From an uncultured Candidatus Saccharibacteria bacterium (GTDB lineage: Bacteria > Patescibacteriota > Minisyncoccia > UBA6257), in assembly GCA_964618625.1 (NCBI GenBank), contig CAZUBI010000001.1, positions 396,901 through 460,900 of the forward strand: a DNA stretch of 64,000 bases, read 5' to 3'. Shown here piece by piece: positions 17,911-59,420 of this stretch; positions within the stretch are counted from its first letter, which is position 1; the number at the start of each line of letters is the position of its first letter. Below the pieces are notes generated by a model. That model saw only the letters and a program-made list of their open reading frames with translations, searched no databases and was not told where the DNA came from. The translations under genes were made by a program, and so were the position numbers.

Positions 17911-19062
17911 ATGCCAGAAAATTTTTCTTTACCTTCTAATGTTTCTAATGAAGATTCTGGAGTAAAACCAGAACAATCTTCTGAGCAAGTTCCTGAGAAA
18001 CAGGAACCAGCACAAAGATTTTCTCCCCCACCTTCAAATGTTTTTATAAGAACATCACAGTCAGACTTAGAAAAGATTAAATCTGAAGGAGGGGCAATTT
18101 CAGGAATGCCGCCTCCACCTTCTTCACCGCCTCCCGTTACTCCTACACCTACTCCTGTTCCTCCTATGGAACAGGAACCCAGTGTGCAAGGTGTGCAAGC
18201 AGAGCCTGGTATACAACCAGAACCGGCTTTTTCTGAATCAGAGCCTTCTTTTGCGCCAGAAGCGCCAGTTGGAATATCTGAGTTTCCAACTACTGAGGCA
18301 GAACCTCCACAGAAAAATAAATTATTGCCTTTTATCATTATAGGTGTATTAATTGTGGCAGTAGCTGCATTAGGATATTTTTATCTTTGGCCTAAGTTTT
18401 TTGAAGCTAAACCTGTTGTTACTACTACGACAACCACAACTACAAGTACAACAACTACAACTTTAGCTGCTTCGCCATATCCTCAAATCAGTGGTCCGTT
18501 TCAAAAATCCCTTTTTAATATAGAAATCAGCGGTTCAGACATTGTTAAAGCCATAAAAGATACAGCCACTTCTGAAATGGCTGCTCCTGGAACTTTCAAA
18601 ATTCTTATTCCTAAAGTACACAATGATGCTCTTACAAATGAAGAAGTAGTTCTTTCTCTTATTCCGCAACTGCCAACAAGATTAAAGCCTTATATGTTGG
18701 CCCGTAAATACCTAGTTTATTCTTATTATGGGGAAGTTAATCCATCGCTTGGTTTAATTATTGATATTGGAGAAGAAAGCAAGGAGGAAGTAAAATCTAT
18801 TTTCTTAGCTTGGGAAAAAAGATTAGGAATTTTGAATGATTTAAAAGATTTCTTCCTTGTAAGTATTCCTAAGAAAACTGTTAATGATTTTAAAGAAACT
18901 ACTAATGCAGGTGCAGAAATTCGTTACTTTACTTATTCTGGAGAAGAAGCGGCTATTACTTATGCTTTTTCTGATAAATATCTTATAATGAGTTCTTCTT
19001 TGGAGTCAGTAAATAGCGCTATTTCCCATCTTCAGGGTATAACTGAACCTATCTATCCATAA
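17911..19062 (+). CDS. Hypothetical single-pass membrane protein with a Pro-rich N-terminus and a poly-Thr linker
   Basis: 383 aa; PPPPSSPPPVTPTPTPVPP, TM helix LLPFIIIGVLIVAVAALGYFYLW, TTTTTTTTSTTTTT run, then a globular C-terminal domain. The stop TAA is embedded in repeat family 1. Confidence 0.5.
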   Translation: MPENFSLPSNVSNEDSGVKPEQSSEQVPEKQEPAQRFSPPPSNVFIRTSQSDLEKIKSEGGAISGMPPPPSSPPPVTPTPTPVPPMEQEPSVQGVQAEPGIQPEPAFSESEPSFAPEAPVGISEFPTTEAEPPQKNKLLPFIIIGVLIVAVAALGYFYLWPKFFEAKPVVTTTTTTTTSTTTTTLAASPYPQISGPFQKSLFNIEISGSDIVKAIKDTATSEMAAPGTFKILIPKVHNDALTNEEVVLSLIPQLPTRLKPYMLARKYLVYSYYGEVNPSLGLIIDIGEESKEEVKSIFLAWEKRLGILNDLKDFFLVSIPKKTVNDFKETTNAGAEIRYFTYSGEEAAITYAFSDKYLIMSSSLESVNSAISHLQGITEPIYP

Positions 19063-19107
19063 GAACTTGCTTCGCAGGACCTTGTTTCTCACTTTGCTCG
19101 AAATAAA
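19059..19107 (-). repeat. Dispersed intergenic repeat family 1, copy A (consensus strand is minus)
   Basis: Reverse complement TTTATTTCGAGCAAAGTGAGAAACAAGGTCCTGCGAAGCAAGTTCTTAT. The 32-nt 5' core is shared with 45423, 45978 and 47851. It overlaps the stop codon of 17911..19062. Confidence 0.65.
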
Positions 19108-40696: not shown

Positions 40697-40720
40697 GAGT
40701 TAATAAAAAAGCGAAAGTAG

Positions 40721-40765
40721 ATTGTTGAAAAAACCATAGCGATTAGCGTGTTTTTGAGACAATCC
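40721..40765. repeat. Dyad-symmetric intergenic element, family 2, copy 2 of 3
   Basis: ATTGTTGAAAAAACCATAGCGATTAGCGTGTTTTTGAGACAATCC, between metG and tatD. Confidence 0.6.
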
Positions 40766-40784
40766 TACTAAGTTTTAATTAATT

Positions 40785-41671: not shown

Positions 41672-43375
41672 TTATATTTCAATAACAACTGGTAATACCA
41701 TTGGGCGACGTTGTGTTTTTTTAAATAGGAATAGACCTATTTCATTTCTTAAATTGTTACGGATATAACCTTCATTAAATGTGTTTCCGCTAGTAGAGCG
41801 GCTAACAATTTCTCTGACTAGTTTTTTTGTTTGATTTATTAGTTCTTTTGATTCTTTCATATAAACAAATCCTTGTGAAATAATTTCAGGATTATTATGA
41901 AGTAATCCTGTTTTTCTATCCACCAAAGCAATAACGATAAAAATTCCATCCTTGGAAAGGGTTTGCCTTGCCCGAAGTACTACTTCTTTAACATCTCCTA
42001 CTCCTAATCCGTCAACCATTATGTAGTTTGTCGGAACAAATTTTTCTGTAGCCATAATTTTATTGCTGGTTAATTCAACTATTTGACCATTAGCAGTTAC
42101 CATTATATTTTTTTTAGGAATTTCTAAAGATTCTGCTAATTCTGCATGGAGTTTTAACATAGAAAAGTGGCCAAGAATGGGCATAAAGAATTGCGGCTTA
42201 GTAAGGTTAATCATCATTTTTAAGTCTTCCTGATAGCCATGACCAGAGGCATGAATATCAAGCATTTTATAGTGATAAACTTTAGCTCCTTGTTTTGCTA
42301 AATTATCTTTTAAATTTTGGACAGCTAATTCATTTCCCGGGACAACAGAAGAAGAGAAAATTACGGTATCTCCTTTCTGTATTTTTAAATGCTTATGTTC
42401 TCTATTTACTATTCTCATTAAAGTTGCTTCACTTTCGCCCTGTGCGCCAGTACATAGTATTGTTAATTTTTGTGGATCTAGACGGTTGGCTTCTTTCCAA
42501 TTAATTAAAGTTCCTTTTTTTATGTTTACATATTTTAGTTTTTCTGCAATGGCTAAATTGGTTCTCATTGCATACCCTTGTATAATAACTTTCCTGTCAT
42601 ATTTTTCTGATAACCAGATAGCTTGCTGGAGGCGGTTAATTAATGAAGCAAAGGCGGCTAAAATAATTCTTCCTTTACATTGCCCAAAAATAGAATCTAA
42701 ATTATCCATTATTGTTTTTTCTGAAATTGAGTGCCCAGTATTTTCTACGCCAGTTGAATCAGACATTAAAAGCTGAACTCCTTGGGAAGCAAGTGTAGTA
42801 ATACGTGATAAATCAGCTGGTTTATCACCCACTGGATGAAAATCAAATTTAAAATCAGTCGCATACATAATTAATCCATATGGTGTATCAATAGCCAGCC
42901 CTAAAGTATCAGGTATATTATGGTTTAAATGAAATGGAGAAATTTTAAAAGGGCCTAAGGTTATAGATTTATTTGGATTTATTTCTTCAATATTTAATTT
43001 TTTCAAATGAGGGAAATCCTCCTGCCTTTTTAAAATTATTCCCCGACTAAGAGGAGCAGTATAAATAGTAGGATAATTTAATTTATCAATTAAGTAAGGT
43101 ATGGCTCCTATGTGGTCATAATGAGCATGAGTAATCAAAATCCCCAATATTTTTTTCTCTGGATGGTTAATTAAATATTCTATATTAGGAATAATAAAAT
43201 CAATACCTGGCATATTTTCGTCAGGAAACTGTAGCCCCATATCAACAATTAGGATCTGATTCTCGTATTCAAAAAGAGTCATATTGCGGCCAACTTCTTC
43301 CAATCCTCCTAATGGAATAATTTTTAATGGGTTAGAAGATATTTTTGTTTTTTTACGAAATTTTTTACGTTCCAT
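41672..43375 (-). CDS. rnj: Ribonuclease J (start reassigned to Met35 at 43375)
   Basis: MBL motif ILITHAHYDHIGAIPYL, beta-CASP and a C-terminal domain. The 34-codon ORF-track N-terminal extension (MPRWRNWQTRTVQNRVPKFWDVGSNP...) is a translated tRNA-Leu. Confidence 0.9.
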   Translation of the reverse strand: MERKKFRKKTKISSNPLKIIPLGGLEEVGRNMTLFEYENQILIVDMGLQFPDENMPGIDFIIPNIEYLINHPEKKILGILITHAHYDHIGAIPYLIDKLNYPTIYTAPLSRGIILKRQEDFPHLKKLNIEEINPNKSITLGPFKISPFHLNHNIPDTLGLAIDTPYGLIMYATDFKFDFHPVGDKPADLSRITTLASQGVQLLMSDSTGVENTGHSISEKTIMDNLDSIFGQCKGRIILAAFASLINRLQQAIWLSEKYDRKVIIQGYAMRTNLAIAEKLKYVNIKKGTLINWKEANRLDPQKLTILCTGAQGESEATLMRIVNREHKHLKIQKGDTVIFSSSVVPGNELAVQNLKDNLAKQGAKVYHYKMLDIHASGHGYQEDLKMMINLTKPQFFMPILGHFSMLKLHAELAESLEIPKKNIMVTANGQIVELTSNKIMATEKFVPTNYIMVDGLGVGDVKEVVLRARQTLSKDGIFIVIALVDRKTGLLHNNPEIISQGFVYMKESKELINQTKKLVREIVSRSTSGNTFNEGYIRNNLRNEIGLFLFKKTQRRPMVLPVVIEI

Positions 43376-43389
43376 ATTTTTTATTTTAG

Positions 43390-43475
43390 TGCCGCGGGTG
43401 GGATTTGAACCCACATCCCAAAATTTTGGGACACGGTTCTGAACCGTGCGCGTCTGCCAATTCCGCCACCGCGGC
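43390..43475 (-). tRNA. tRNA-Leu(CAG), long variable arm
   Basis: Reverse complement GCCGCGGTGGCGGAATTGGCAGACGCGCACGGTTCAGAACCGTGTCCCAAAATTTTGGGATGTGGGTTCAAATCCCACCCGCGGCA. Anticodon loop TTCAGAA. Confidence 0.8.
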
Positions 43476-43487
43476 AAATTTATTTAT

Positions 43488-45170
43488 TTACTTATTTATT
43501 ATTGTACGTTTTGTATATATATACCAATTCTCAATGTCAGCGAATTTTTCTGATGGCAGATTGGCATATTGAATATTATAACCTTTTATTTTTTGCGGAA
43601 GGATATAGAGATAAAAGGGATTATAAAGAAAAAGGGCAGGTTTGTCTTCGAAAAGTATGCTTTGAATTGTTTTTAGGTCATTTGTTCGTTGTTCTTCATC
43701 AAAGGTTTGTCTCGTTTTTTCTAAAAGTTCGTCTAAATCTTTGTTTTGATAGGCAGAAAGATTAAGGCCCGGATCAGTTATTTGTGAAGAGTGCCAAAAA
43801 GAAAATAAATCAGGGTCTTGTCCTATAATTTCTCCGAAAAGCAATGCGTCGTAAGATCTAGTTTGAATAATTTCTTTTTCCAAAGTAGCTAATGGAAGAA
43901 TTTGTAATTCCACAGAAATTCCTATTTTTTCCCAGCAAGTTGCTAAATAATTAGCCACTCTGATTAATTCTAAGTTATCAGGAAGTGAAAGGATAAAAGT
44001 TCTTTGGTCTGGTTCTAATTGTTCAATGATTTCTTTTGCCTCTTGTAGCGAATATTCTGGCAAGAGATTAAATTCTTTTTCTAAGAATCCGGGAGTAAAA
44101 GGGCCTCCCAAAGGGAAAGCTTGTTCTTTTAATATTTCTGTCATTAATTCTTGCCGTGGTATTGCTAAATCTAATGCCTGTCGAATTTCTTTTTGATCAA
44201 ATAAAGAGTTTTTTAGATTCAAAAACACTGCATAATAGCGGGGAAGATACAAAGAAGCTATTTGGATGTTCTTTTTGCTTGCAAAAAAATCTACATCTTC
44301 GATTAAAACAGGAGAGAATCCGTCGATTTCTTTTTTTAATAATCCGCTTTTAGCTAAATCATAATTATCGTAAGAACGGAAGATTAATTTGGAAATATAA
44401 GGTTCTTTTTTAAAATAATTTTCATTAGCTACCAGAGAATAACTAATAATCTTTCCAGGTTTGTTTTTTTCCAAACTGTCAAAAAGATATGGTCCTGTTC
44501 CAATTGGTTTAAGATTATAATCCGCTGATAAAAAATTTCTTGATTCAATATTTTCCCAGATATGTTTTGGAATTATTTTTAAAGTAAGGTTTTGTAAGAA
44601 TGGCTTATAAGGGTTTTTAAGATTAAAACGTATAACATGTGTCCCTAATTTTTCTACAATAACTCCTCCCCAATTTAACCTCAATGGGCTTCTTATACTT
44701 GGATTTTGGATTGTCTCAATTGTAAAAATTACATCATCTGCCGTGAAAGTCACTCCATCATGCCAAAAAACATTGTCCTTAAGAAATATGATATAGGTCT
44801 TGCCATCTTTACTAACTTCTGTTTTTTCTGCTAAATTAGTGATTAATTTTCCTTGTCCATCAATAGAATATAAACCGTCATAAATTAATTCTATCAAATC
44901 CTTATCATAGTCGTTGGATTGAGCTAAAACAGGGTTAATATAAGATGGGCGGCCAATGATGCCTAAATGTAAGACTCCTCCTTTTTCTGGTTCAAGTGTT
45001 GTAAATTTGCAAATAAAATTAAAAATTAGAAGAAAAATGCCGGCAAGCAGAAAGCATAAAAATAGAAAACCGAGAGCTTTCTTTTTTGATGGCAATTTTA
45101 ACCACTTTCTAAATAAGGAGTACCTTGTTTCTCCCTTCGCTCGAAATAAAGAACTAAAAATGGTTTTCAT
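43488..45170 (-). CDS. ABC transporter substrate-binding protein, family 5 (oligopeptide/dipeptide type), N-terminally membrane-anchored
   Basis: 560 aa; N-terminal TM LGFLFLCFLLAGIFLLIF; SBP_bac_5-like architecture. Confidence 0.7.
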   Translation of the reverse strand: MKTIFSSLFRAKGETRYSLFRKWLKLPSKKKALGFLFLCFLLAGIFLLIFNFICKFTTLEPEKGGVLHLGIIGRPSYINPVLAQSNDYDKDLIELIYDGLYSIDGQGKLITNLAEKTEVSKDGKTYIIFLKDNVFWHDGVTFTADDVIFTIETIQNPSIRSPLRLNWGGVIVEKLGTHVIRFNLKNPYKPFLQNLTLKIIPKHIWENIESRNFLSADYNLKPIGTGPYLFDSLEKNKPGKIISYSLVANENYFKKEPYISKLIFRSYDNYDLAKSGLLKKEIDGFSPVLIEDVDFFASKKNIQIASLYLPRYYAVFLNLKNSLFDQKEIRQALDLAIPRQELMTEILKEQAFPLGGPFTPGFLEKEFNLLPEYSLQEAKEIIEQLEPDQRTFILSLPDNLELIRVANYLATCWEKIGISVELQILPLATLEKEIIQTRSYDALLFGEIIGQDPDLFSFWHSSQITDPGLNLSAYQNKDLDELLEKTRQTFDEEQRTNDLKTIQSILFEDKPALFLYNPFYLYILPQKIKGYNIQYANLPSEKFADIENWYIYTKRTIINK

Positions 45171-45422: not shown

Positions 45423-45481
45423 TTTATTTCGAACAAAGCGAGAAACAAGGTTCTCTTGAGCGAAGCGAAAGAGGTCCTTAT
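45423..45481 (+). repeat. Dispersed intergenic repeat family 1, copy B
   Basis: TTTATTTCGAACAAAGCGAGAAACAAGGTTCTCTTGAGCGAAGCGAAAGAGGTCCTTAT, followed by further GCGAAG(C/A) short repeats to ~45540. Confidence 0.65.
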
Positions 45482-45564
45482 TTTAATTTCAACATCCTTA
45501 AGCGAAGACACGTTAAACGTGGCGAAGCGAAAGGTTGTTATAATTGTTTAATTTTTAATCATCA

Positions 45565-45927
45565 CTACTTAATCCGATGTAAAAAAGAATTAAAAATGCT
45601 AATAATAATGGATGCAGCTAACCAAGTTATAGGATACTGAATTACTAACACGGGCATGAAAATAGTCGCAACTTTTAGCAGGATGATATTGATAATAAAG
45701 ATAAAAATACCAAGAGTTACCCAAATGAGCGGGAGAAAAAGAATTCGTAAGATTGGTTTTATTAGTAAATTAAGGAGCGAAAGAATCAAAGCGAGAAGAA
45801 TAAGTTGTTCTAATGTGCCTTGAAAATAAAAATCATTAAATAAATAATTTAATAATCTCTGGCAGAGCAAAATCGCCGCAATATTGAGAATAACACCAAA
45901 AAGAAGCCTCTTTAAAAAACGCATCAT
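45565..45927 (-). CDS. Small 4-TM membrane protein (YvlD/DUF360-like)
   Basis: 120 aa; four hydrophobic helices. Bracketed by family-1 repeat copies on both sides. Confidence 0.35.
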   Translation of the reverse strand: MMRFLKRLLFGVILNIAAILLCQRLLNYLFNDFYFQGTLEQLILLALILSLLNLLIKPILRILFLPLIWVTLGIFIFIINIILLKVATIFMPVLVIQYPITWLAASIIISIFNSFLHRIK

Positions 45928-45977
45928 TTAATAGATGTATTATACGTTAATAAGAATAAAAAGTCAAAAGCAAGAGA

Positions 45978-46033
45978 TTATTTTGAGCAAAGCGAGAAAC
46001 AAGGTTCTACGAGCAAAGTGAGCAGGTTCTTAC
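45978..46033 (+). repeat. Dispersed intergenic repeat family 1, copy C
   Basis: TTATTTTGAGCAAAGCGAGAAACAAGGTTCTACGAGCAAAGTGAGCAGGTTCTTAC. Its terminal GTAAGAAC supplies the gpmI stop codon (TAA on the minus strand). Confidence 0.65.
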
Positions 46034-47628
46034 TTTTTAATTCCAAGTAATGGAATTAAGCTTTGCCCCGTCATTTCTGAAGGGATTGGTAAACCAAATA
46101 ATTCTAAAATTGTAGGTGTAACATCGGCAAGCATTCCTCCAGCCCATTTTTCTATTTCCAAAATTCTTTTTATTGAACGAGGAGAGGAAAATTTCCACCT
46201 TTTATCTATTAAATAAAAAGGAACAAGGCTGGTATCATGCTTGGTTTCTATTTCTCCTGTCAGAGGATTTATCATTCTTTCTAAATTGCCATGGTCAGCG
46301 GTAATAATGGTAGTATAATTCAATGCTTGGATTTTTTGAATTATTTTTGCCACTTCCTGATCCATAATTTTCGCGCATTGAATACCCGCTTTCATATTGC
46401 CTGTATGGCTTATTAAATCAGGATTAGCGTAATTTACTAATATAAAATCATAAATATTTTCATCAAAAGATTGAAAAAGCCGCGTAGTAATTTCTGGAGC
46501 CCTCAATTCCGGATAATCTTCAAGATGCAATGTTTTTATAGAAGGAATAATTACCCAATATTCACCCGGGAATGGTTTTTCTTTAAATCCGTCGAAAAAA
46601 TATGTAACATGGGCGTATTTTTCTGTTTCTGCTAAATGAAGTTGTCGTTTTCCAGCCTTAGAAAGTATTTGAGATAAACAGGTAGAGATTTTTTGAGGAG
46701 GGAATGCTACTGGTAAAGCAAAATCTCTTTTATATTGAGTAAATGTAGTAATTTTCAATTCTTGGAATTTTTTAATAGGAAATTTGTCAAATTGAGGATT
46801 AATAAAAGGTTCTACCAATTGTCGCATTCTTTCTTCGCGAAAATTGAAGAATATAATACCATCTCGTTCTTTGATAATACTTGAAGGCTCTTGTTCGTTT
46901 GGATCACCAATCAGTGCCGGAACAATAAATTCATCAGTAATGCTTCCTTTATAAGATTTTTCTAAATAAGCGAGAGCATCATTTTCTGTTTTGCATTTAC
47001 CAAAAACCAAAGCGTCATAACATTTAGCTATTCTGTTAAAATTATTATCTCTATCCATAGCATAAAAACGTCCTGACAAGCTGGCGATTTTGCCTTTTCC
47101 TCGTATTTTTATATCTTCTTGCAATTGAGTTATTAATTCTTTTGCTTTTGTCGGAGAGGAATCTCGTCCATCAGTAAAAAGATGCAAATTTATTTTTTCT
47201 ATCTTTAGAGAATTGGCTAAATCCAAAAGCGCCATAAGGTGCTCGTAAGAACTATGAACAATATTATTACTAAATAAACCGGCTAAATGTAATGTGCTAT
47301 TATTCTTTTTAACATGGTTATATGTTTCCAACAAAGCTGGGTTTTGGAAAAAAGATCCATTTTGTATGCTTTGTGAAATACGGACAGAATATTGGTATAA
47401 AATTTGACCAGTGCCTAATGTTAAATGGCCTACCTCGCTGTTTCCAGCTTTGTTAAATGGCAATCCTACAGAAATGCCTGATGCTTGTAAGGCGATCATA
47501 GGATAATATTTTTTAATCTCATCAATATTTGGAGTACCAGCTCGATGGATAGCATTAGAAAAATCTTTTTTTCCTATTCCCCAACCATCTAAAATTATTA
47601 AACAAATTTTTGAACAAAGACCAGGCAT
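46030..47628 (-). CDS. gpmI: 2,3-bisphosphoglycerate-independent phosphoglycerate mutase
   Basis: 532 aa; N-terminal ILDGWG, catalytic Ser region, C-terminal metal-binding ADHGN. Confidence 0.9.
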   Translation of the reverse strand: MPGLCSKICLIILDGWGIGKKDFSNAIHRAGTPNIDEIKKYYPMIALQASGISVGLPFNKAGNSEVGHLTLGTGQILYQYSVRISQSIQNGSFFQNPALLETYNHVKKNNSTLHLAGLFSNNIVHSSYEHLMALLDLANSLKIEKINLHLFTDGRDSSPTKAKELITQLQEDIKIRGKGKIASLSGRFYAMDRDNNFNRIAKCYDALVFGKCKTENDALAYLEKSYKGSITDEFIVPALIGDPNEQEPSSIIKERDGIIFFNFREERMRQLVEPFINPQFDKFPIKKFQELKITTFTQYKRDFALPVAFPPQKISTCLSQILSKAGKRQLHLAETEKYAHVTYFFDGFKEKPFPGEYWVIIPSIKTLHLEDYPELRAPEITTRLFQSFDENIYDFILVNYANPDLISHTGNMKAGIQCAKIMDQEVAKIIQKIQALNYTTIITADHGNLERMINPLTGEIETKHDTSLVPFYLIDKRWKFSSPRSIKRILEIEKWAGGMLADVTPTILELFGLPIPSEMTGQSLIPLLGIKK

Positions 47629-47668
47629 AAATTTAAAATTGTTTATAGTATATCTTATTTTTTTCTCT

Positions 47669-47698
47669 TTGACAAAGGATGTATCTTTCTGATAGAAT
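47669..47698 (+). promoter_or_regulatory. Putative promoter TTGACA-N18-TGaTAGAAT upstream of rny
   Basis: TTGACA at 47669-47674 and an extended -10 at 47690-47698. It predicts a ~250-nt rny leader containing family-1 repeat copy D. Confidence 0.4.
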
Positions 47699-47850: not shown

Positions 47851-47918
47851 ATAAGAACCTGCTCGTTTCACTCGCAGAACCTTCGCAGAACCTTGTTTCT
47901 CACTTTGCTCGAAATAAA
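47851..47918 (-). repeat. Dispersed intergenic repeat family 1, copy D (consensus strand is minus)
   Basis: Reverse complement TTTATTTCGAGCAAAGTGAGAAACAAGGTTCTGCGAAGGTTCTGCGAGTGAAACGAGCAGGTTCTTAT, which contains an internal 11-nt tandem AAGGTTCTGCG x2. Confidence 0.65.
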
Positions 47919-47949: not shown

Positions 47950-49476
47950 ATGGCTATATTAGATATATCAAGCATAGTTCTGTCTATTGGGATAGGCTTG
48001 TTTTTGGGGTATGTTATTCGTCAGAAAATTGCCCAAAAATATTCTGATTCTATCGAGACTAAATTAAAGTCCCGTATCGAGAAAGTTCGTGAAGAAGCAA
48101 AAAAAGTTGTTTTAGAAGCCAGAGAAAAGGCTACGAAAATCTTAGAAGAATCTGAAGAAGAAAACAAGAAGAGAAAGATTCAGATTGATAAAATGGAAGA
48201 AAGATTATTCCAACGGGAAGAGTTGGTTGATAAGAAACAAAAAGAATTAACAGAGGAAGAGAAAGAGAATAAAAGAATCTTTGAGAAAATACAAAACTTA
48301 AAAACAGAACTGGAAAAACTTCAAAAAAGCGAATTAGAATCCTTGGAAAAGGTAGCAGGATTATCAGTAAAAGAGGCAAAAGAGGAACTTCTTCAAAGAG
48401 CAGAAAAAGAATATAAAGAGGATATATTGAAATCATTAAAAAAATTAGAAACAACAAGGAAAGAAGAAATGGAGAATAAAGCGAAAGATATAATGGTAGA
48501 CGCAATTCAAAAATACAGTCGTTCCAATGTTAGTGAAATTACTACCACTATAATGAATTTGCCTTCAGAGGATATAAAGGGAAGGATAATAGGCCGTGAA
48601 GGAAGAAATATTCGTCATTTTGAGAGACTTTCAGGAGTGGAATTGATAATGGATGATTCACCAAACACAATTATTCTTTCAAGTTTTGATCCTGCAAGGC
48701 GCGAAGTTGCGAGGATAGCTTTAGATAAATTAATCAAAGATGGTCGTATTCAACCAGCTAGAATTGAAGAAAAAATTATAGAGGCTCAGGCAGAAATTAG
48801 GGATACAATTAAAAAAGCAGGTGAAGATGCTGTATATGAAGTTGGCATATTAGATTTACCGCCAGAAATAATTTATTTATTAGGGAGATTAAACTTTAGG
48901 ACAAGCTATGGTCAGAATGCTTTAATGCATTCAATGGAAGTTGCTTTATTAAGCGCGGCTTTGGCTTCAGAACTTGGAGCTGATGTTGAAGTGGCCAAAA
49001 AAGCAGGACTACTTCATGATATTGGAAAAGCGGTTGATCAGGAGATTGAAGGCACTCATTTGGAATTAGGGAGGAAAATATTAAAAAAATATCATCAGTC
49101 AGAGGAAATAATTAAAGCAATGCAGTCTCATCATGATACATATCCTGTAGAGACTTTAGAAGCGGCTATTGTAAATGCTGCCGACGCTATTTCCGCTGCT
49201 CGTCCTGGAGCAAGAAAAGATAATGTTGAGGCATATCTTAAACGATTAGCTAATTTAGAAGAAATAGCTTATTCTTTTAAAGGGGTTGAGAAGGTTTATG
49301 CTGTTTCTGCTGGCAGGGAAATTAGAGTTTTTGTTCATCCGAATCAGATTGATGATCTTGGGGCAATGAAATTAGCAAAAGATTTAGCCAAACGTATAGA
49401 GGAAACATTGAAATATCCTGGCGAAGTTAAAGTCGCGATAATTCGTGAAACAAGAGCTATTGAAATTGCCAGATAA
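47950..49476 (+). CDS. rny: Ribonuclease Y
   Basis: N-terminal TM, coiled coil, KH domain GRIIGREGRNIRHFERLSGV, HD domain HSMEVALLSA...LLHDIGKA. Confidence 0.9.
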   Translation: MAILDISSIVLSIGIGLFLGYVIRQKIAQKYSDSIETKLKSRIEKVREEAKKVVLEAREKATKILEESEEENKKRKIQIDKMEERLFQREELVDKKQKELTEEEKENKRIFEKIQNLKTELEKLQKSELESLEKVAGLSVKEAKEELLQRAEKEYKEDILKSLKKLETTRKEEMENKAKDIMVDAIQKYSRSNVSEITTTIMNLPSEDIKGRIIGREGRNIRHFERLSGVELIMDDSPNTIILSSFDPARREVARIALDKLIKDGRIQPARIEEKIIEAQAEIRDTIKKAGEDAVYEVGILDLPPEIIYLLGRLNFRTSYGQNALMHSMEVALLSAALASELGADVEVAKKAGLLHDIGKAVDQEIEGTHLELGRKILKKYHQSEEIIKAMQSHHDTYPVETLEAAIVNAADAISAARPGARKDNVEAYLKRLANLEEIAYSFKGVEKVYAVSAGREIRVFVHPNQIDDLGAMKLAKDLAKRIEETLKYPGEVKVAIIRETRAIEIAR

Positions 49477-55304: not shown

Positions 55305-55325
55305 GAATAATAAAAAGGTTTAGAG

Positions 55326-55374
55326 ATGTTGTTGAGAAAACTGTAGCGATTAGCGTGTTTTTGAAACAATATTT
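55326..55374. repeat. Dyad-symmetric intergenic element, family 2, copy 3 of 3
   Basis: ATGTTGTTGAGAAAACTGTAGCGATTAGCGTGTTTTTGAAACAATATT, between the pfkB-like kinase and the aldolase. Confidence 0.6.
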
Positions 55375-55401
55375 CAAACCTTAAACTTTAAAATTAAAAT
55401 T

Positions 55402-56175: not shown

Positions 56176-56264
56176 GGAGGAGTACCGAAGTGGTCATAAC
56201 GGAGCCGTTTCGAAAACGGTTAGTCCTTTTTTAGGACACGTGGGTTCGAATCCCACCTCCTCCG
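56176..56264 (+). tRNA. tRNA-Ser(CGA), long variable arm
   Basis: GGAGGAGTACCGAAGTGGTCATAACGGAGCCGTTTCGAAAACGGTTAGTCCTTTTTTAGGACACGTGGGTTCGAATCCCACCTCCTCCG. Anticodon loop TTCGAAA. Confidence 0.8.
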
Positions 56265-56275
56265 CATTTGAAGAT

Positions 56276-56304
56276 CCGAGTGGTTCGAATCCTAGTTCCC
56301 CAGC
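56276..56304 (+). repeat. Post-tRNA-Ser T-loop-like motif GAGTGGTTCGAATCCTAGTTCCCCAGC, copy 2 of 2
   Basis: Related to 14665..14691 and to the 31-bp R1 repeat (GGTTCCAACATCGTTCCATAGCCCCAGC). Begins 12 nt after tRNA-Ser(CGA). Confidence 0.5.
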
Positions 56305-56342
56305 AAATTAGAATAGCCAAAGAGGCGATTTTTTGGTAGAAT
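56298..56342 (+). promoter_or_regulatory. Terminator + extended -10 promoter module (R2), copy 1
   Basis: CCCCAGCAAATTAGAATAGCCAAAGAGGCGATTTTTTGGTAGAAT: imperfect hairpin, T6 run, then TGgTAGAAT extended -10, ~35 nt upstream of the 56380 ATG. 39/45 identical to copy 2 at 58374..58417. Confidence 0.5.
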
Positions 56343-56379
56343 ATCTAAAATATTTAAAAATATTAATTAATAAAAAAAT

Positions 56380-56850
56380 ATGGAAGAATTTAATAAAATT
56401 AATTATTCTCCAGAAAATTCCAGAGATGGAAATCCTCCTGTTGATAAAGATAAAATTGAACAGTTAGAAAAAGATAGAGAAGAGGAAATTAATAAAATAA
56501 TTGCTGATTTTTTGATTTCGCCAAGGAAATTTATCGAAAAGCCTAATAATGAAAATAAATTAGATAAAAAAGTAGCTATTAAACTTATTGAAGAGTATAG
56601 GGCATCTGCGCTTTTAAACTATATTGATAAATTTCAAGGCTTAGATAAAGAAGTAGCTCTTAATCTTATTGAAAGCGGTTGTGCATCTGCTATTCTTAAA
56701 AATTTTAATAAATTTCAAGGCTTAGATAAAGAAGTAGCTCTTAATCTTATTGAAAGTGGTGATGCAGATGCTGTTCTTGATAATATTGATAAATTCCAAG
56801 GACTAGATAAAGAATCAACTCTTAAGATGATTGAAGAAAGCGATAGCTAG
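56380..56850 (+). CDS. Hypothetical acidic protein with 3.5 tandem ~27-aa repeats (IDKFQGLDKEVALNLIESG...)
   Basis: 156 aa; DNA-level near-identical 51-nt repeats at 56629-56679 and 56710-56760 (period 81 nt), indicating recent internal duplication. Confidence 0.4.
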   Translation: MEEFNKINYSPENSRDGNPPVDKDKIEQLEKDREEEINKIIADFLISPRKFIEKPNNENKLDKKVAIKLIEEYRASALLNYIDKFQGLDKEVALNLIESGCASAILKNFNKFQGLDKEVALNLIESGDADAVLDNIDKFQGLDKESTLKMIEESDS

Positions 56851-56890
56851 TATAGCTAGTAATGAAGTGGAGTAAAGCTACATAGTTGCT

Positions 56891-56921
56891 AAAAAGGTTC
56901 CAACATCGTTCCATAGCCCCA
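56891..56921 (+). repeat. 31-bp perfect direct repeat R1 (AAAAAGGTTCCAACATCGTTCCATAGCCCCA), copy 1 of 3
   Basis: Identical 31-mer at 58347..58377 and 59381..59411. Lies 41 nt after the stop of 56380..56850. Confidence 0.7.
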
Positions 56922-57052
56922 CGGATTTCGAAAATAAACAGTAAAATATATAAGCCAATTCTATAATAATAATTTTTAAGCTTTTATGTTAGAGTTAAAA
57001 TATTAGAAAGGTCGATTCCAAGTAGTAAATAAAATAATAAAAAAAACAAATT

Positions 57053-57886
57053 ATGTCAGAAGAATATACAAAAAGTGAAAGTAATTCTGTAGTTAAAATT
57101 ATTAAAGATGTAGTAATTGCTTTAATCGCAGTAATCTTAGTATTCGGTACTTTCGGAATGGTGGGAGCTGGACACAGAGGAGTTATGCTTAACTTCGGTG
57201 CAGTTCAAGATAAAGTTTTAGGTGAAGGATTCTATATTAAGATTCCTATCGCTCAGAAAGTAGTTAAGATAGATGTTAGAACAGTTAAAATGGAAGTTCA
57301 GGCACTCTCTTATTCAAGAGATATTCAGATAGTAGATAGCACAATAGCATTGAATTATCATCTATCTCCTAAGGCAGTTAATAAGCTTTATCAGGAAATA
57401 GGTTTGGACTTTGAGTCAAGAATTATAAGTCCAGCAATTCAAGAATCTGTTAAGGCAACAATAGCTAATTATACAGCCCAGGAATTAGTTGAAAAAAGAG
57501 GAGAAGTTAAGGATGGTATTAAAGTATTCTTAACAGAAAGATTATTAAGACAAGATATAATCGTTGATGAATTATCAATAGTTAACTTCGATTTCTCTGA
57601 TACATACGAAGCAGCTATCGAAGCTAAACAGGTAGCACAACAAGAAGTTCTAACAGCTAAGAACAAATTAGAACGAGTTAAATTTGAAGCAGAACAAAGA
57701 ATTGCTCAAGCTAAAGGTGAGGCAGAAGCTATTAAGATTCAAGTTGAAGCTATTACTCAGCAAGGTGGAAAAGATTATGTAAATCTTAAATGGGTTGAAG
57801 CTTGGGGTAGTGGCCTTGCACCAGTCCCTCAAACATTAATTGGAGAGGGAAGTGGAAGCTTTTTATTCAATTTGAATAGTAAATAG
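57053..57886 (+). CDS. SPFH/band-7 (prohibitin/HflK-like) membrane protein
   Basis: 277 aa; N-terminal TM IALIAVILVFGTFGMVGA; SPFH core; C-terminal coiled coil (QQEVLTAKNKLERVKFEAEQRIAQAKGEAEAI). Confidence 0.75.
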   Translation: MSEEYTKSESNSVVKIIKDVVIALIAVILVFGTFGMVGAGHRGVMLNFGAVQDKVLGEGFYIKIPIAQKVVKIDVRTVKMEVQALSYSRDIQIVDSTIALNYHLSPKAVNKLYQEIGLDFESRIISPAIQESVKATIANYTAQELVEKRGEVKDGIKVFLTERLLRQDIIVDELSIVNFDFSDTYEAAIEAKQVAQQEVLTAKNKLERVKFEAEQRIAQAKGEAEAIKIQVEAITQQGGKDYVNLKWVEAWGSGLAPVPQTLIGEGSGSFLFNLNSK

Positions 57887-57979
57887 TATAGGTGATTAAG
57901 TCCCACCGTTTTAAATATTTAAATGGTCGATAGTTTAATTAAATTAATGCTATGAAAAATCAATTTTAATTATAAAAAT

Positions 57980-58276
57980 ATGTTAAAATTCAAAAACGCA
58001 AAAAAATTTAATAGGACTAGTATAAAAAAGTTACCAGAAGAAAAACCAATTATTTATAAACTTTTAAATAATACTAGAAAAGAATTGTATGTTGGCGTGG
58101 CAAAAAGGAATAGAGTTCAAGAGCGTTTATTGGAGCATTTAACCTTGAAGGAAGAAAAGATTCCAGGTGTGGTAAAAGTTAAATTTGTACAGTTCTCAAG
58201 TATAGAGAAAGCAAAAAAGGCAGAAAAGCAATTAATAAAAAAGATACAACCAAAATTCAACGAACAAAATAAATAG
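57980..58276 (+). CDS. Small GIY-YIG nuclease-superfamily protein
   Basis: 98 aa; IYKLLN...ELYVGVAKRNRVQERLLEHL matches GIY...YVG...R..ERL..H catalytic core. Confidence 0.6.
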   Translation: MLKFKNAKKFNRTSIKKLPEEKPIIYKLLNNTRKELYVGVAKRNRVQERLLEHLTLKEEKIPGVVKVKFVQFSSIEKAKKAEKQLIKKIQPKFNEQNK

Positions 58277-58346
58277 TTAGAAACTTAGGAGGGTATAATT
58301 AAGCTAAAAAACGCTTCATATCTAGCATCATACGTTTTTTAAAGCC

Positions 58347-58377
58347 AAAAAGGTTCCAACATCGTTCCATAGCCCCA
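58347..58377 (+). repeat. R1 31-bp direct repeat, copy 2 of 3 (fused to R2 copy 2)
   Basis: Perfect match to 56891..56921. The same CCCCAGC runs straight into the R2 module. Confidence 0.7.
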
Positions 58378-58417
58378 GCAAATTAGAATCGCCAAAAAGG
58401 CGATTTTTTGGTAGAAT
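58374..58417 (+). promoter_or_regulatory. Terminator + extended -10 promoter module (R2), copy 2
   Basis: CCCCAGCAAATTAGAATCGCCAAAAAGGCGATTTTTTGGTAGAAT: perfect 6-bp hairpin ATCGCC/GGCGAT, T6 run, then TGgTAGAAT, 10 nt upstream of the 58427 ATG. Confidence 0.55.
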
Positions 58418-58426
58418 TATTAAAAG

Positions 58427-59341
58427 ATGAAATTAGAAAAAGTTTTAGAAAAATTAAAAGAGCTTTTCGGTAAATGGGGTCTTGAGCAGAAAGATTGGAT
58501 TTTGGTTGCTAACTATGCTGTTAAACTACAAGGCTATGACGTAAGATTAAGAAAAGGCCATTTTAATACCATAGTTGATAAGAAAAAACTTCCTTGGAAC
58601 GTGAAGGAAGGTTTTGAAATTTTTCCACCGAAAAATTCAATATGGTCCAAGGATTATATTGAATGGATGAAATTAACTGGTTTTGAAACTGACCTGATAG
58701 CTTATGATAGCAGGAAGATTAAAAAGTATTTAAAATATAGTATCACTTATAAGCTTCCAAACAAGGGATCTATTTATTTAATAACAATGGAAGGTAATTT
58801 AATCAGCCTTAATGATTTTTTGGTTCATTGTCGAGAAGAAGAAGCAGGCATTGCTAAAGGTATGTACTTATTAGATGTTATTAAAAATTTACAAAAAGCA
58901 TCTAGAGAAAAAAAAGATGAAAAATCAATTCTTCTATCTGATAAAATATTGAAAAAGTATCAATTTTTAAATAAGAAAAAACCCCGGGAAGAAAAAATAA
59001 TATTTAAAGGAAGTATAAAAGGAGATGGAGTTTGCAGTGGAAAGGTTGTAGGTAGAGCAAAATTAATTAAAGGTAAAGGTAATAAATATATGGATATTAA
59101 GGGAAAGGTAATTTTAGTAGCTAAAATGACCTCTCCTGATTTTGTTATTATTATTAATAAAATTAAAGGCATGATTACTGATGAAGGTGGTAAATTATGC
59201 CACGCGGCAATTTTAGCAAGAGAATTTGAAATTCCTTGTATAATTGGGACGAAAGTAGCTACCAAAGTTATAAATAATGGTGATCTTATAGAATTGGATG
59301 CTGATTTTGGGATAGTAAGAATATTAGAAAGAAAGAAGTAA
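58427..59341 (+). CDS. Protein with C-terminal PEP-utilising-enzyme mobile (phosphohistidine swivel) domain and an N-terminal domain of unknown function
   Basis: 304 aa; GGKLCHAAILAREFEIPCIIGT matches the PEP-utiliser phosphohistidine signature. The N-terminal 180 aa have no motif I recognise. Confidence 0.55.
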   Translation: MKLEKVLEKLKELFGKWGLEQKDWILVANYAVKLQGYDVRLRKGHFNTIVDKKKLPWNVKEGFEIFPPKNSIWSKDYIEWMKLTGFETDLIAYDSRKIKKYLKYSITYKLPNKGSIYLITMEGNLISLNDFLVHCREEEAGIAKGMYLLDVIKNLQKASREKKDEKSILLSDKILKKYQFLNKKKPREEKIIFKGSIKGDGVCSGKVVGRAKLIKGKGNKYMDIKGKVILVAKMTSPDFVIIINKIKGMITDEGGKLCHAAILAREFEIPCIIGTKVATKVINNGDLIELDADFGIVRILERKK

Positions 59342-59380
59342 GTTACAGAAAAAATCTAATATTATTTAATTCCTAAGGTC

Positions 59381-59411
59381 AAAAAGGTTCCAACATCGTT
59401 CCATAGCCCCA
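59381..59411 (+). repeat. R1 31-bp direct repeat, copy 3 of 3
   Basis: Perfect match. It lies between the convergent 3' ends of 58427..59341(+) and comF(-). Confidence 0.7.
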
Positions 59412-59420
59412 GCCAAATAT

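Follow-up and report, generated by a model that had tools for sequence, protein, structure and literature searches.

Dispersed short repeats in Patescibacteria as probable copies of a small non-autonomous mobile DNA element

Comparison with described repeat families

The genomes of CPR bacteria (Patescibacteria) rank among the smallest and most streamlined known, and the usual description is that they contain few repeats and little mobile DNA. Elsewhere, REPs and BIMEs are short imperfect palindromes that are strictly extragenic, occur in hundreds of copies per genome and possess a cognate RAYT. MITEs are characterised by terminal inverted repeats and target-site duplication. Integron attC sites, which delimit gene cassettes, each form one long imperfect palindrome carrying the cores R'' and R' (RYYYAAC / GTTRRRY). 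Lagging-strand orientation bias is typical of IS200/IS605 elements.

Members of the IS200/IS605 family carry subterminal hairpins, have no inverted repeats, produce no duplication, insert 3' of a fixed short sequence and transpose one strand (PMC5027513). IS608 hairpins include non-canonical pairs, and the IS608 target resembles the right end of the element (PMC5027513, PMC3201880). RPEs, repeats of about 100-150 bp that are confined to Rickettsia, occur intergenically and, with unusual frequency, in frame within unrelated housekeeping genes and have no known mobilising enzyme (PMC10969869). Occasional in-frame intragenic fusions and terminator-like hairpins are also described for MITEs, Correia, ERIC, BOX, RUP and SPRITE repeats (PMC10969869). 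GCGNAGC, in turn, forms an unusually stable mini-hairpin in single-stranded DNA (PMC13037366).

The repeats analysed here come from a 64-kb stretch of DNA (the window). They are probably copies of a selfish mobile DNA element, small and non-autonomous, which is widely distributed among Patescibacteria. With the IS200/IS605 group, including PATEs and the REP/RAYT pair, the element shares subterminal hairpins with non-canonical pairs, lack of terminal inverted repeats and of duplication, strand-specific structure and clean empty sites; it also prefers to insert 3' of a short sequence resembling the right end. In contrast to that group, no TnpA, RAYT or autonomous partner was found for it, and its copies in the window display no lagging-strand orientation bias. 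Also, the ends of IS608 are fixed, whereas the sequence of hairpin 2 of the element (see below) varies between copies.

RPEs are similar in being short, structured, non-autonomous repeats of a reduced-genome lineage that insert into genes in frame and leave a conserved, tolerated peptide. They differ in size and host (about 100-150 bp in Rickettsia versus 33-63 nt in Patescibacteria) and bear no sequence relationship to the element, as judged from the description of RPEs. That description (PMC10969869) mentions no TTA|TTT-like target, no similarity between the target and the ends, no head-to-tail arrays and no stop-preserving insertion.

The element resembles MITEs, Correia, ERIC, BOX, RUP and SPRITE repeats in being small, non-autonomous, dispersed and mostly intergenic. 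However, it has neither the terminal inverted repeats nor the target-site duplication of MITEs and is much shorter, and MITEs and other small repeats are species-specific, whereas the element is common to very divergent genomes. Like REPs it contains hairpins, but 16-27 of its copies lie in ORFs, and there are at most three exact-core copies per representative genome (five copies in the 64 kb of the window). The original prediction had called the repeat REP/MITE-like; this is supported as far as a dispersed, mobile repeat of non-coding origin is meant, although the formal definitions of MITE and REP do not apply. Hairpin 1 and many variants of hairpin 2 are centred on GCGAAGC or GCAAAGC, as in the GCGNAGC mini-hairpin. 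The latter is a structural motif, not a genetic element, and its relevance here would lie in stabilising the folded single strand.

Two further candidates were rejected. A gene cassette with attC sites was considered because copies bracket small genes, but secG, the PF04020 gene and gpmI are housekeeping genes in conserved synteny; moreover, the ends of the unit depart from the attC cores, and it does not form a single long palindrome. The arms TATTTC...GAAACA might be read as parS-like, but these half-sites are 11 nt apart and the copies are dispersed.

Structure and distribution of the repeat unit

The unit consists of TTTYGAGCRAAGYGAGAAACAAGGTTCT, a variable hairpin and AGGTTCTTA. It is 33-63 nt long (mode 48 nt) and extends from TTTYGAGC to GGTTCTTA. 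These boundaries are set by head-to-tail arrays, in which identical units of 33, 39, 46, 48, 50 or 54 nt abut exactly at ...GGTTCTTA|TTTYGAGC.... The two ends, TTTYGAGC... and ...GGTTCTTA, are not reverse complements, i.e. terminal inverted repeats are missing. Hairpin 1 is conserved in sequence (TTTC-GA-GC-RAA-GC-GA-GAAA) and contains tandem G.A mismatches and a GNA-type loop; it is based on 4 + 2 canonical pairs plus assumed G.A pairs. It is followed by the linker CAAGGTTCT and by an optional hairpin 2 region, made up of one or more GC-rich hairpins of variable sequence and conserved structure, and then TTA. The 7-nt direct repeat AGGTTCT occurs on both sides of hairpin 2.

The absence of a strong hairpin, noted in the original prediction, was confirmed for the window copies: nearest-neighbour folding is no better than that of shuffled sequences (DNA folding z-scores -0.6 to +1.4). 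The alignment of copies that had been proposed along with it revealed covariation, both in hairpin 2 and in the inner pair of hairpin 1. Hairpin 2 contains 36 double-change cells versus 16.3 in shuffles (counts that ignore shared ancestry), and 87% of its cells are paired, compared with 29-55% in slid controls. At the inner pair of hairpin 1 we counted 108 G-C, 23 A-T, 22 G-T and 6 A-C combinations (Fisher p = 2e-10). Wobble pairs are consistent with the forward strand only. RNA folding offered an alternative long-range helix between GYGAGAA and UUCUUAY, which was dismissed, as the commoner C at Y is mismatched there and paired in hairpin 1. Perfect palindromes found in hairpin 2 could be a product of the mechanism, e.g. 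of fold-back synthesis, rather than of selection.

Using one 21-nt core as search pattern, 185,579 species-representative genomes were scanned. The core was retrieved from 38 stretches, 33 of them with full element context; its hosts are nearly all MAGs labelled as Parcubacteria, Paceibacteria, Wildermuthbacteria, Nealsonbacteria or Saccharibacteria (Patescibacteria). A scan of metagenomes yielded more than 120 stretches among the matches listed, and identical units repeated head to tail make up many of the finds. With so many further copies in representative genomes and metagenomes, chance local duplication, which had been named as the outcome that would speak against a repeat family, is not borne out. 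No representative genome holds more than three exact-core copies, and because of this low number the activity of the element seems modest. A core of about 30 nt is near-identical across lineages whose housekeeping proteins are only about 50-60% identical.

Viral origin was discarded, since the core pattern gave just two matches in IMG/VR, both by chance and in the same methyltransferase-like gene. When ORFs lying up to 0.4 kb and 1.5 kb from copies were compared all against all by BLASTP, no recurrent neighbour gene emerged; the matches comprised just housekeeping genes and ORFs reading through the element. The element had been said to match no known class, and comparison with Rfam agrees with this: tRNAs were the only hits at gathering score in the whole window and in perfect copies from eight other loci, and no family with E up to 10 overlaps the copies in the 44.9-48.1 kb region. 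Literature queries by sequence and keyword retrieved no description of the element, which is apparently undescribed.

Copies in the window and in its relatives

Window copies were detected with covariance model R1 and by search with a 32-nt consensus, which at <=3 mismatches gives five matches versus 0.00 expected from shuffles. The four copies originally reported were all found in their places, 19059-19107(-), 45423-45481(+), 45977-46033(+) and 47851-47918(-), with covariance model E ~1e-11. Their number was too low, however: a fifth copy, here called E, had been overlooked at 45113-45150 on the minus strand (covariance model E = 6e-7). In total, the window contains five copies and one degenerate variant (B2) that abuts copy B.

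Copy A (19060..19103, minus strand) is a full 44-nt unit, TTTCGAGCAAAGTGAGAAACAAGGTCCT-GCGAAGC-AAGTTCTTA. The stop codon of ORF 17911..19062 is supplied by the TTA that ends this unit (TAA at 19060-19062), and the presumed original TAA of this ORF is still present at 19104-19106, right after the copy. An ortholog of copy A exists in L015, a 90%-identical relative.

Copy E (45114..45146, minus strand) represents a 33-nt short form that comprises hairpin 1 and AAGGTACTCCTTA and is devoid of hairpin 2. It is located at the 5' end of the SBP_bac_5 (solute-binding-protein) gene 43488..45170, in frame and in sense orientation, and extends the gene by 11 codons. The resulting peptide, FRAKGETRYSL, is placed between conserved MKTIFSSL and FRKWLKLP. 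TTATTT borders the copy on both sides because of the element's own ends. The same 33-nt subfamily occurs in L060 and L121.

Copy B (45427..45480, plus strand; full 54-nt unit), with TTA at 45424-45426 as its left flank, separates the PF04020 membrane gene from secG and is antisense to the two genes. Directly after its terminal TTA begins B2 (45481..45540, plus strand), a degenerate variant unit TTTTAATTTC...GCGAAGC...AAGGTTGTTA. Judged by its sequence, B2 may tentatively be assigned to a divergent subfamily ending in AAGGTTGTTA; it does not match covariance model R1.

Copy C (45981..46032, plus strand; full 52-nt unit, left-flank TTA at 45978-45980) has the gpmI stop on one side and, on the other, the conserved PF04020 gene promoter. 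The TTA with which it ends (46030-46032) provides the TAA stop of gpmI on the minus strand, and the original TAA persists immediately after the copy. Both cases in which the element had been predicted to supply the stop of the upstream gene, ORF 17911..19062 and gpmI, are therefore real, and so is the bracketing of a small membrane gene by two copies, B and C enclosing the PF04020 gene 45565..45927 (120 aa). Copy D (47852..47914, minus strand) is a full 63-nt unit with the predicted internal 11-nt tandem duplication (GGTTCTGCGAA/GGTTCTGCGAG). It lies between the divergent genes rny and gpmI, 35 nt ahead of the rny ATG and also upstream of the conserved promoter of gpmI (47675..47647).

On the other hand, copies are not always co-oriented with their flanking genes, given the divergent surroundings of D and the frequency of both orientations in related loci. 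Nor does the transcript always carry the reverse complement, as E is sense to its gene and lies within the coding sequence. Related loci comprise 29 copies antisense to both neighbours and 13 sense to both, along with 19 sense and 8 antisense copies inside ORFs.

The window was compared with five syntenic relatives, whose gpmI is 93-78% identical. Presence of the copies is polymorphic among these close relatives: some sites are empty, one retains the remnant of a deletion, and there are independent insertions at TTATTT sites close by. Filled as well as empty sites are rich in AT, and their alignment can be shifted by a few bases. In L043-L047, none of the sites B, C, D and E is occupied. At site B, the intergenic gap amounts to 5-15 nt in L043, L044 and L046, and L042 has an ortholog of copy B, without B2; the insertion is not clean when L042 and L043 are compared. 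Site C is likewise empty in L043, L044 and L046, the stop at the same codon in L044 being TGA, and in L042 a 48-nt deletion has left a 15-nt remnant, TAAGAACCTGCCCAC. The D site is empty in L042, L044 and L046, and the element is absent from the E site in L042, L043, L044 and L046. L042 instead carries short-form copies at two other positions in the vicinity. One is a TTATTT site at a distance of 30 nt from E, and about 190 nt separate a short-form copy of L042 from site D. Array length differs between related contigs, with three versus four units in the ClpB-like gene and one versus two in the FtsA-like gene. Contigs with identical SecG only repeated the same sequence (100% over 2,010 nt) and displayed no strain variation.

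Insertion sites, genic copies and possible mechanisms

To the left of 120 non-tandem copies, TTA is found in 53%, NTA in 72% and A at position -1 (NNA) in 92% of cases. IS608 requires a fixed TTAC; the preference of the present element is strong but shorter and less strict, and A at -1 argues for a defined position of cleavage or joining. On the right, the flank is rich in T. The right end of the unit is always ..CTTA, also when the left flank is CTA, TAA, TGA or CAA; the right side does not follow such variation of the left flank, so no target-site duplication is made. Insertion would occur 3' of a T-rich ...TTA|TTT... site that resembles the joined ends of the element (GGTTCTTA|TTTYGAG). Because of this resemblance, new copies would also land directly behind old ones and form head-to-tail arrays.

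The same target choice explains the stop codons. Since the unit inserts at TTA sites, i.e. the antisense of TAA, and itself ends in TTA, antisense insertion at a TAA stop swaps in the TAA of the element without altering the protein. In 17 of 102 copies, a converging ORF of at least 80 codons ends at the TAA of the element; the other two frames account for 4 and 6. The stop-codon effect is real and recurrent, and it is a by-product of target choice. What had appeared as a curiosity in the original prediction becomes a mechanistic consequence.

Long ORFs contain 16 of 167 element groups or, by another count, 27 of 166 copies (~10-16%). Pfam domains span the insert in QueA, TatD, KsgA/RrnaAD, POR_N and Obg, and in GH3 and ClpB-like proteins as well; further in-frame copies are found in genes for FtsA-like proteins, RseP and YchF and in the SBP gene of the window. 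The encoded peptides are short and hydrophilic, YFE(Q/R)SEKQGS..GSY in sense and NKN..QNLVSRFAR in antisense orientation. The length of 59% of units is a multiple of 3 nt, and no stop codon interrupts any of the three forward frames in 31% of distinct units, as compared with 1.7% of shuffles. Owing to this depletion of stop codons and to lengths that are often a multiple of 3 nt, copies in genes are tolerated as short peptide inserts.

The mobilising activity itself is inferred. The likeliest, though still tentative, candidate would be an enzyme acting in trans that, like HUH/Y1 transposases of the IS200/IS605 or RAYT type, binds single-stranded DNA, here the forward strand in its folded state. 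With approximate IS608/IS200 TnpA queries, tblastn over 1.15 Mb around copies gave no match at E up to 1, a weak negative. An autonomous version with a gene between its ends (e.g. tnpA) was not present among 167 loci, including copies without a normal right end. GC skew is positive across the whole window, in which two copies lie on the plus and three on the minus strand, so that lagging-strand orientation bias is not seen in this single 64-kb sample. It appears unlikely that the copies are the footprint of a CPR-wide mobilisation system, whose enzyme would recognise the folded strand (GA-mismatch/GNA mini-hairpin) and paste 33-54-nt units at TTA|TTT across phylum-level Patescibacteria lineages, writing peptide inserts into essential proteins.

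Other explanations assign mobility a smaller role or dispense with a dedicated enzyme. E. coli REPs and pneumococcal SPRITEs are thought to be terminator-like or mRNA-stabilising elements, and the repeat might be a cis-acting RNA or DNA regulatory module kept for such a host function, mobility being secondary. On the forward strand, UCU/AGG pairs lengthen hairpin 2 and UUCUUAUUU follows directly, which is the form of an intrinsic terminator; the wobble pairs suit this strand only, copies are mostly intergenic and often stand directly after stop codons, and D could supply promoter sequence 35 nt upstream of the rny start. A terminator scan flags none of the window copies, however, their folds are weak, and three of the five give the mRNA the non-terminator strand. 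Both orientations relative to transcription are common, antisense being the commoner, and a working terminator would be lethal in obg, queA, ftsA-like and clpB-like genes, all of which contain sense copies or arrays. Close relatives lack copies at the same operon junctions, and no Rfam family corresponds to the repeat. A regulatory function of this kind is therefore doubtful, and the cis-regulatory RNA of invariable orientation suggested originally conflicts with the occurrence of both orientations and with in-frame genic location of one window copy and of ~10-16% of copies elsewhere.

Spread by host processes alone (replication slippage, unequal crossing-over, microhomology or gene conversion between TTATTT-like sequences) would account for arrays of identical units whose copy number changes by whole units. 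It is in line with the AGGTTCT repeat around hairpin 2, the 11-nt slippage duplication in D, the loss of C in L042 through deletion between short repeats and the likeness of target and element junction, which have up to 10 nt in common at the L081 site. Arrays can be put down to slippage, but it does not account for new copies dispersed over unrelated loci of genomes that are divergent and number in the dozens; a 30-nt core that stays near-identical where housekeeping proteins are ~50-60% identical and the defined joining position marked by A at -1 in 92% of left flanks also make this explanation improbable. Finally, genic copies may, in a more radical version, be removed at the RNA level as hairpin-defined mini-introns, or the element may be a multicopy small-RNA gene. 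Strand-specific structure with two hairpins, copies within conserved domains of essential genes and a forward hairpin 2 with a U-tract that could terminate a short transcript would fit. Yet all genic cases are in frame (a one-sided observation, as detection is blind to frame-breaking copies), arrays change by 33, 48 or 54 nt, and units are depleted in stop codons, all of which speaks for translation and against removal; there is no conserved promoter upstream of copies, and arrays leave no room for promoters. Both variants are thus highly improbable.

As a mobile element, the repeat is tiny, crosses deep CPR lineages and is still polymorphic between 90%-identical genomes. Together with its in-frame copies in obg, queA, ksgA, tatD and clpB, it opens a new way to study how genomes change and proteins evolve in CPR bacteria, and it constitutes a concrete ssDNA or RNA substrate for finding the responsible enzyme. 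It accounts for odd insertions in CPR gene predictions and for starts and stops called in the wrong place. It also offers a marker for strain typing.

Copies in the window and structure of the unit

A search with a 32-nt consensus (at most 3 mismatches) matched the window at five places; the number expected by chance, from dinucleotide shuffles, is 0.00. With a covariance model built from copies of other genomes, copies A (19059-19107, minus strand), B (45423-45481, plus), C (45977-46033, plus) and D (47851-47918, minus) scored E about 1e-11 and copy E (45113-45150, minus) E = 6e-7; beyond these, no match in the window had E better than 1. Both searches thus bear out the positions of the four copies in the original prediction. 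Since E is matched by the model as well, one copy had been overlooked and the total is five. Copy B is followed immediately by a degenerate unit (45481-45540), tentatively assigned to a divergent subfamily whose end reads AAGGTTGTTA. The 11-nt internal duplication described for copy D is present, and copies A and C do supply, with their terminal TTA/TAA, the stop codons of ORF 17911..19062 and gpmI (46030..47628, minus strand), respectively.

The genes beside the window copies have ordinary housekeeping roles (pnp, ftsH, rnj, SBP, secG, gpmI, rny). The main RNA-decay enzymes PNPase, RNase J and RNase Y are all encoded in the window (15729-17846, 41672-43477 and 47950-49476), each gene at most 1.7 kb from an element copy. 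In other genomes no association with RNA-decay genes was seen, except for conserved synteny near pnp at 4 loci, and this proximity is therefore read as coincidence.

The forward strand was defined as that reading TTTYGAGC...GGTTCTTA, and unit anatomy was worked out by aligning 32 copies drawn from many genomes. The first part, TTTC GA GC RAA GC GA GAAA, is conserved in sequence and has the potential to form a hairpin whose stem contains two tandem G.A mismatches and whose three-base loop is of GNA type; GCGAAGC and GCAAAGC fall in a class of extraordinarily stable DNA mini-hairpins (PMC13037366). A linker, CAAGGTTCT, forms the second part. The third, variable in sequence and length, is usually a perfect GC-rich hairpin (for example GGCGAAGCC, CGCCGAAGGCG, CCGATGAAATCGG or GATTGCCGAAGGCAATC), with AGGTTCTTA after it. 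Boundaries are set by head-to-tail arrays of identical units, in which GGTTCTTA is joined exactly to TTTYGAGC, with periods of 33, 39, 46, 48, 50 and 54 nt. The short form of 33 nt, to which copy E belongs, has no hairpin 2.

Both hairpins show compensatory changes. In hairpin 2, 36 cells are altered on both sides versus 16.3 in shuffles, and 87% of cells pair versus 29-55% when the partner column is slid. The sole pair of hairpin 1 left free by the search pattern (G-C 108, A-T 23, G-T 22, A-C 6) covaries with Fisher p = 2e-10, a value that ignores shared descent. The G-T and T-G wobbles are compatible with the forward strand only, an indication that folding takes place in a single, defined strand, either ssDNA or RNA. 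Folding of the window copies is no better than that of shuffled sequence, in agreement with the absence of a strong hairpin noted originally. Their apparent lack of structure is explained by the variable segment, which in some copies (B and C among them) is no clean palindrome but a second motif of the GAGCGAAGCGA type.

Hairpins can accumulate in the element, which is modular. Three or four different GC-rich hairpins occupy the position of hairpin 2 in some units (L118 4970-5125, L087 5560-5650, L084 6321-6400; for example CGCCCAGAAGATTCTGGGCG, CGCCCCCTTCGGGGGCG and GCCGACTTCGTCGGC), in total ~80-130 nt between AAGGTTCY and AGGTTCTTA. On two metagenome contigs (L055 and L109), a copy directly beside the 3' end of the 23S rRNA gene has ~90 nt of unrelated sequence in place of hairpin 2.

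Gain, loss and target site

Syntenic loci from 5 relatives were found by their gpmI homologues (identity 93%, 86%, 80%, 78%) and compared along the order rny <> gpmI - PF04020 - secG - SBP - rnj. Among them the covariance model detected copies only in the closest, L042. Copy B is shared with L042 (93%) and absent from L043, L044 and L046 (86-78%), where the PF04020-secG gap measures only 5-15 nt. At site C, L042 keeps the first 15 nt (TAAGAACCTGCCCAC), the missing 48 nt having been lost between short direct repeats; L043, L044 and L046 are empty, and L044 has a TGA stop at the exact codon holding the element's TAA in the window. Copy D is absent from L042 and, where the region is covered, from L044 and L046; a short-form copy occurs in L042 ~190 nt from this site, where the window has none. 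Copy E is a 33-nt in-frame insertion in the SBP gene (MKTIFSSL-FRAKGETRYSL-FRKWLKLP), absent at this site from L042, L043, L044 and L046, all 4 reading MKTIF.SLFRKW. TTATTT stands on both its flanks and a single TTGTTT at empty sites; in L042 a short-form copy lies at another TTATTT, 30 nt upstream of the ATG. These site-by-site differences show several independent gains and losses within a single 3-kb region of genomes still >90% identical. Elsewhere, related contigs have arrays of unequal length, the difference being whole units (ClpB-like 3 versus 4, FtsA-like 1 versus 2, GH3 3 versus 2).

Near-consensus promoters lie just upstream of the PF04020 gene (TTGACT-17-TATAAT, 45939-45967, minus) and gpmI (TTGTCA-17-TATACT, 47647-47675, minus), conserved in all syntenic relatives, element copies present or not. 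Transcription thus seems to be initiated near each gene, not as one long operon.

Among 120 non-tandem copies, the trinucleotide adjoining the unit on its left is TTA for 53%, NTA for 72% and NNA for 92%. In its wider form the target logo, t-Y-Y-T-T-A/T-T-T-y, is similar to the joined ends of the element itself, GGTTCTTA/TTTY; arrays form because the unit end is itself a target. Target-site duplication was rejected as the source of the flank similarity, since the right end (..CTTA) stays unchanged when the left flank deviates. The stop-codon observation of the original prediction is correct and is accounted for by target choice, as insertion occurs 3' of TTA, the antisense of a TAA stop. After such an insertion the gene would read its last codon, then TAAGAACC...CGAAA and TAA, so that the element's TAA would take over from the original stop with the frame kept and the protein unaltered. 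In A and C a second TAA is still present directly after GAAA. The element's TAA is the exact stop of a converging ORF (at least 80 codons) in 17 of 102 non-redundant copies, and the other two frames gave 4 and 6. Elements may abut start codons as well: a short-form copy in a Nealsonbacteria MAG (L038 2301-2353, minus) ends ...GGTTCTTATG, and a DUF59/SufT-like gene (MSVKDLKKEVL...) apparently starts at its ATG.

Copies are also found inside genes. ORFs reaching at least 60 codons on both sides contain 16 of 167 element groups; a second count gave 27 of 166 copies. Pfam domain matches run continuously across the insert in QueA, TatD, KsgA/RrnaAD, POR_N and Obg, whole arrays are carried by GH3 and ClpB-like proteins, and further hosts are an FtsA-like protein, GT2 glycosyltransferase, YchF and, in the close relative L008, RseP. 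Sense copies mostly encode YFE(Q/R)SEKQGS...GSY, antisense copies NKN...QNLVSRFAR. Unit length is a multiple of three in 59%, and in 31% of 130 distinct units, versus 1.7% of shuffles, each of the three forward frames is open, both figures being inflated by shared ancestry. Similar in-frame behaviour within genes is what made Rickettsia palindromic elements (RPEs) notable (PMC10969869).

Distribution and hosts

A one-genome-per-species collection contains 38 stretches with the 21-nt core GARCRAAGNGAGAAACAAGGT. Five of them, without any element context, are chance matches, about as many as estimated for a pattern of such information content. The 33 true stretches come from MAGs labelled Parcubacteria, Paceibacterota, Wildermuthbacteria, Nealsonbacteria, Saccharibacteria or Patescibacteria, except for one Pacearchaeota label and a few others. 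Representative genomes hold at most 3 exact-core copies each, and the element is therefore a low-copy family. A metagenome scan yielded at least 120 stretches; the core search of IMG/VR returned nothing but a chance match in a methyltransferase-like gene. Comparison with Rfam, proposed at the outset, gave nothing matching the element, and our literature search found no paper describing it. The element is a real feature and the family is apparently undescribed.

Taxon labels of some bins look unreliable. The relative L015, labelled Saccharibacteria, has 90% DNA identity to the window, and Pacebacteria/Paceibacterota proteins are the nearest to the window's gpmI; for the MAG CAYZJA01 (L015, L008, L010), the deposited label 'Candidatus Saccharibacteria' is at odds with the evidence. 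In the 'Gammaproteobacteria' MAG CAYTZB01 (L007, L020, L028), RpoA and S4 proteins are ~63% identical to those of CPR loci.

Function, proposed mode of movement and other repeats

An RNA of fixed orientation, co-oriented with its genes and always transcribed as the reverse complement, had been suggested. This is refuted: copy E is sense to its own gene, D falls within a divergent promoter region, on the upstream side of the conserved gpmI promoter, and copies commonly occur in either orientation relative to transcription. With its UCU/AGG extension and UUCUUAUUU behind it, forward hairpin 2 does look terminator-like, but a terminator scan flagged 0 window copies and sense copies sit within essential genes. 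Given these copies and the two orientations, a dedicated cis-regulatory RNA or efficient terminator is unlikely. No recurrent neighbouring gene was found beside the copies.

We consider the element to be probably mobile, selfish and non-autonomous. Its movement would follow a set of rules: a strand-specific fold, subterminal hairpins containing non-canonical pairs, neither inverted repeats nor duplication, insertion preferentially 3' of a short sequence mimicking the right end, and clean empty sites. These rules match peel-and-paste single-strand transposition of IS200/IS605 elements and their gene-less derivatives (PMC5027513, PMC3201880). Against this model, no Y1 transposase was found near any copy (1.15 Mb searched with IS608 and IS200 TnpA queries, a weak negative), no autonomous version was seen among the copies inspected, and window copies lack orientation bias despite uniformly positive GC skew. 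HUH-type movement is a tentative proposal, less likely than not; the agent may instead be a site-specific recombinase with a TTATTT-like core as its substrate, or copies may have spread via host slippage and microhomology. The element is closest to RPEs in behaviour and to IS200/IS605-type elements in insertion rules, and formally belongs to none of the MITE, REP and RPE classes.

The window contains a second intergenic repeat family, unrelated to the element, of 71-83 nt (1827-1897, 40708-40778, 55315-55385, all plus), situated between co-directional genes and without an Rfam match. Each repeat folds into a long and almost perfect hairpin (-20 to -27 kcal/mol by RNA folding, z -5.0 to -6.5); the plus strand folds clearly better than the minus strand, which suggests G.U pairs and a role at the RNA level. 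Further repeats cluster at 56298-59419. They comprise an 81-nt coding tandem repeat in 3 copies (56560-56802, within ORF 56380..56850) and repeated ~66-82-nt segments (56298-56379/58373-58454 and 56864-56929/58320-58385/59354-59419) adjoining a tRNA (56176-56264). The cluster has the appearance of a gene family duplicated in place, or of a further mobile region.
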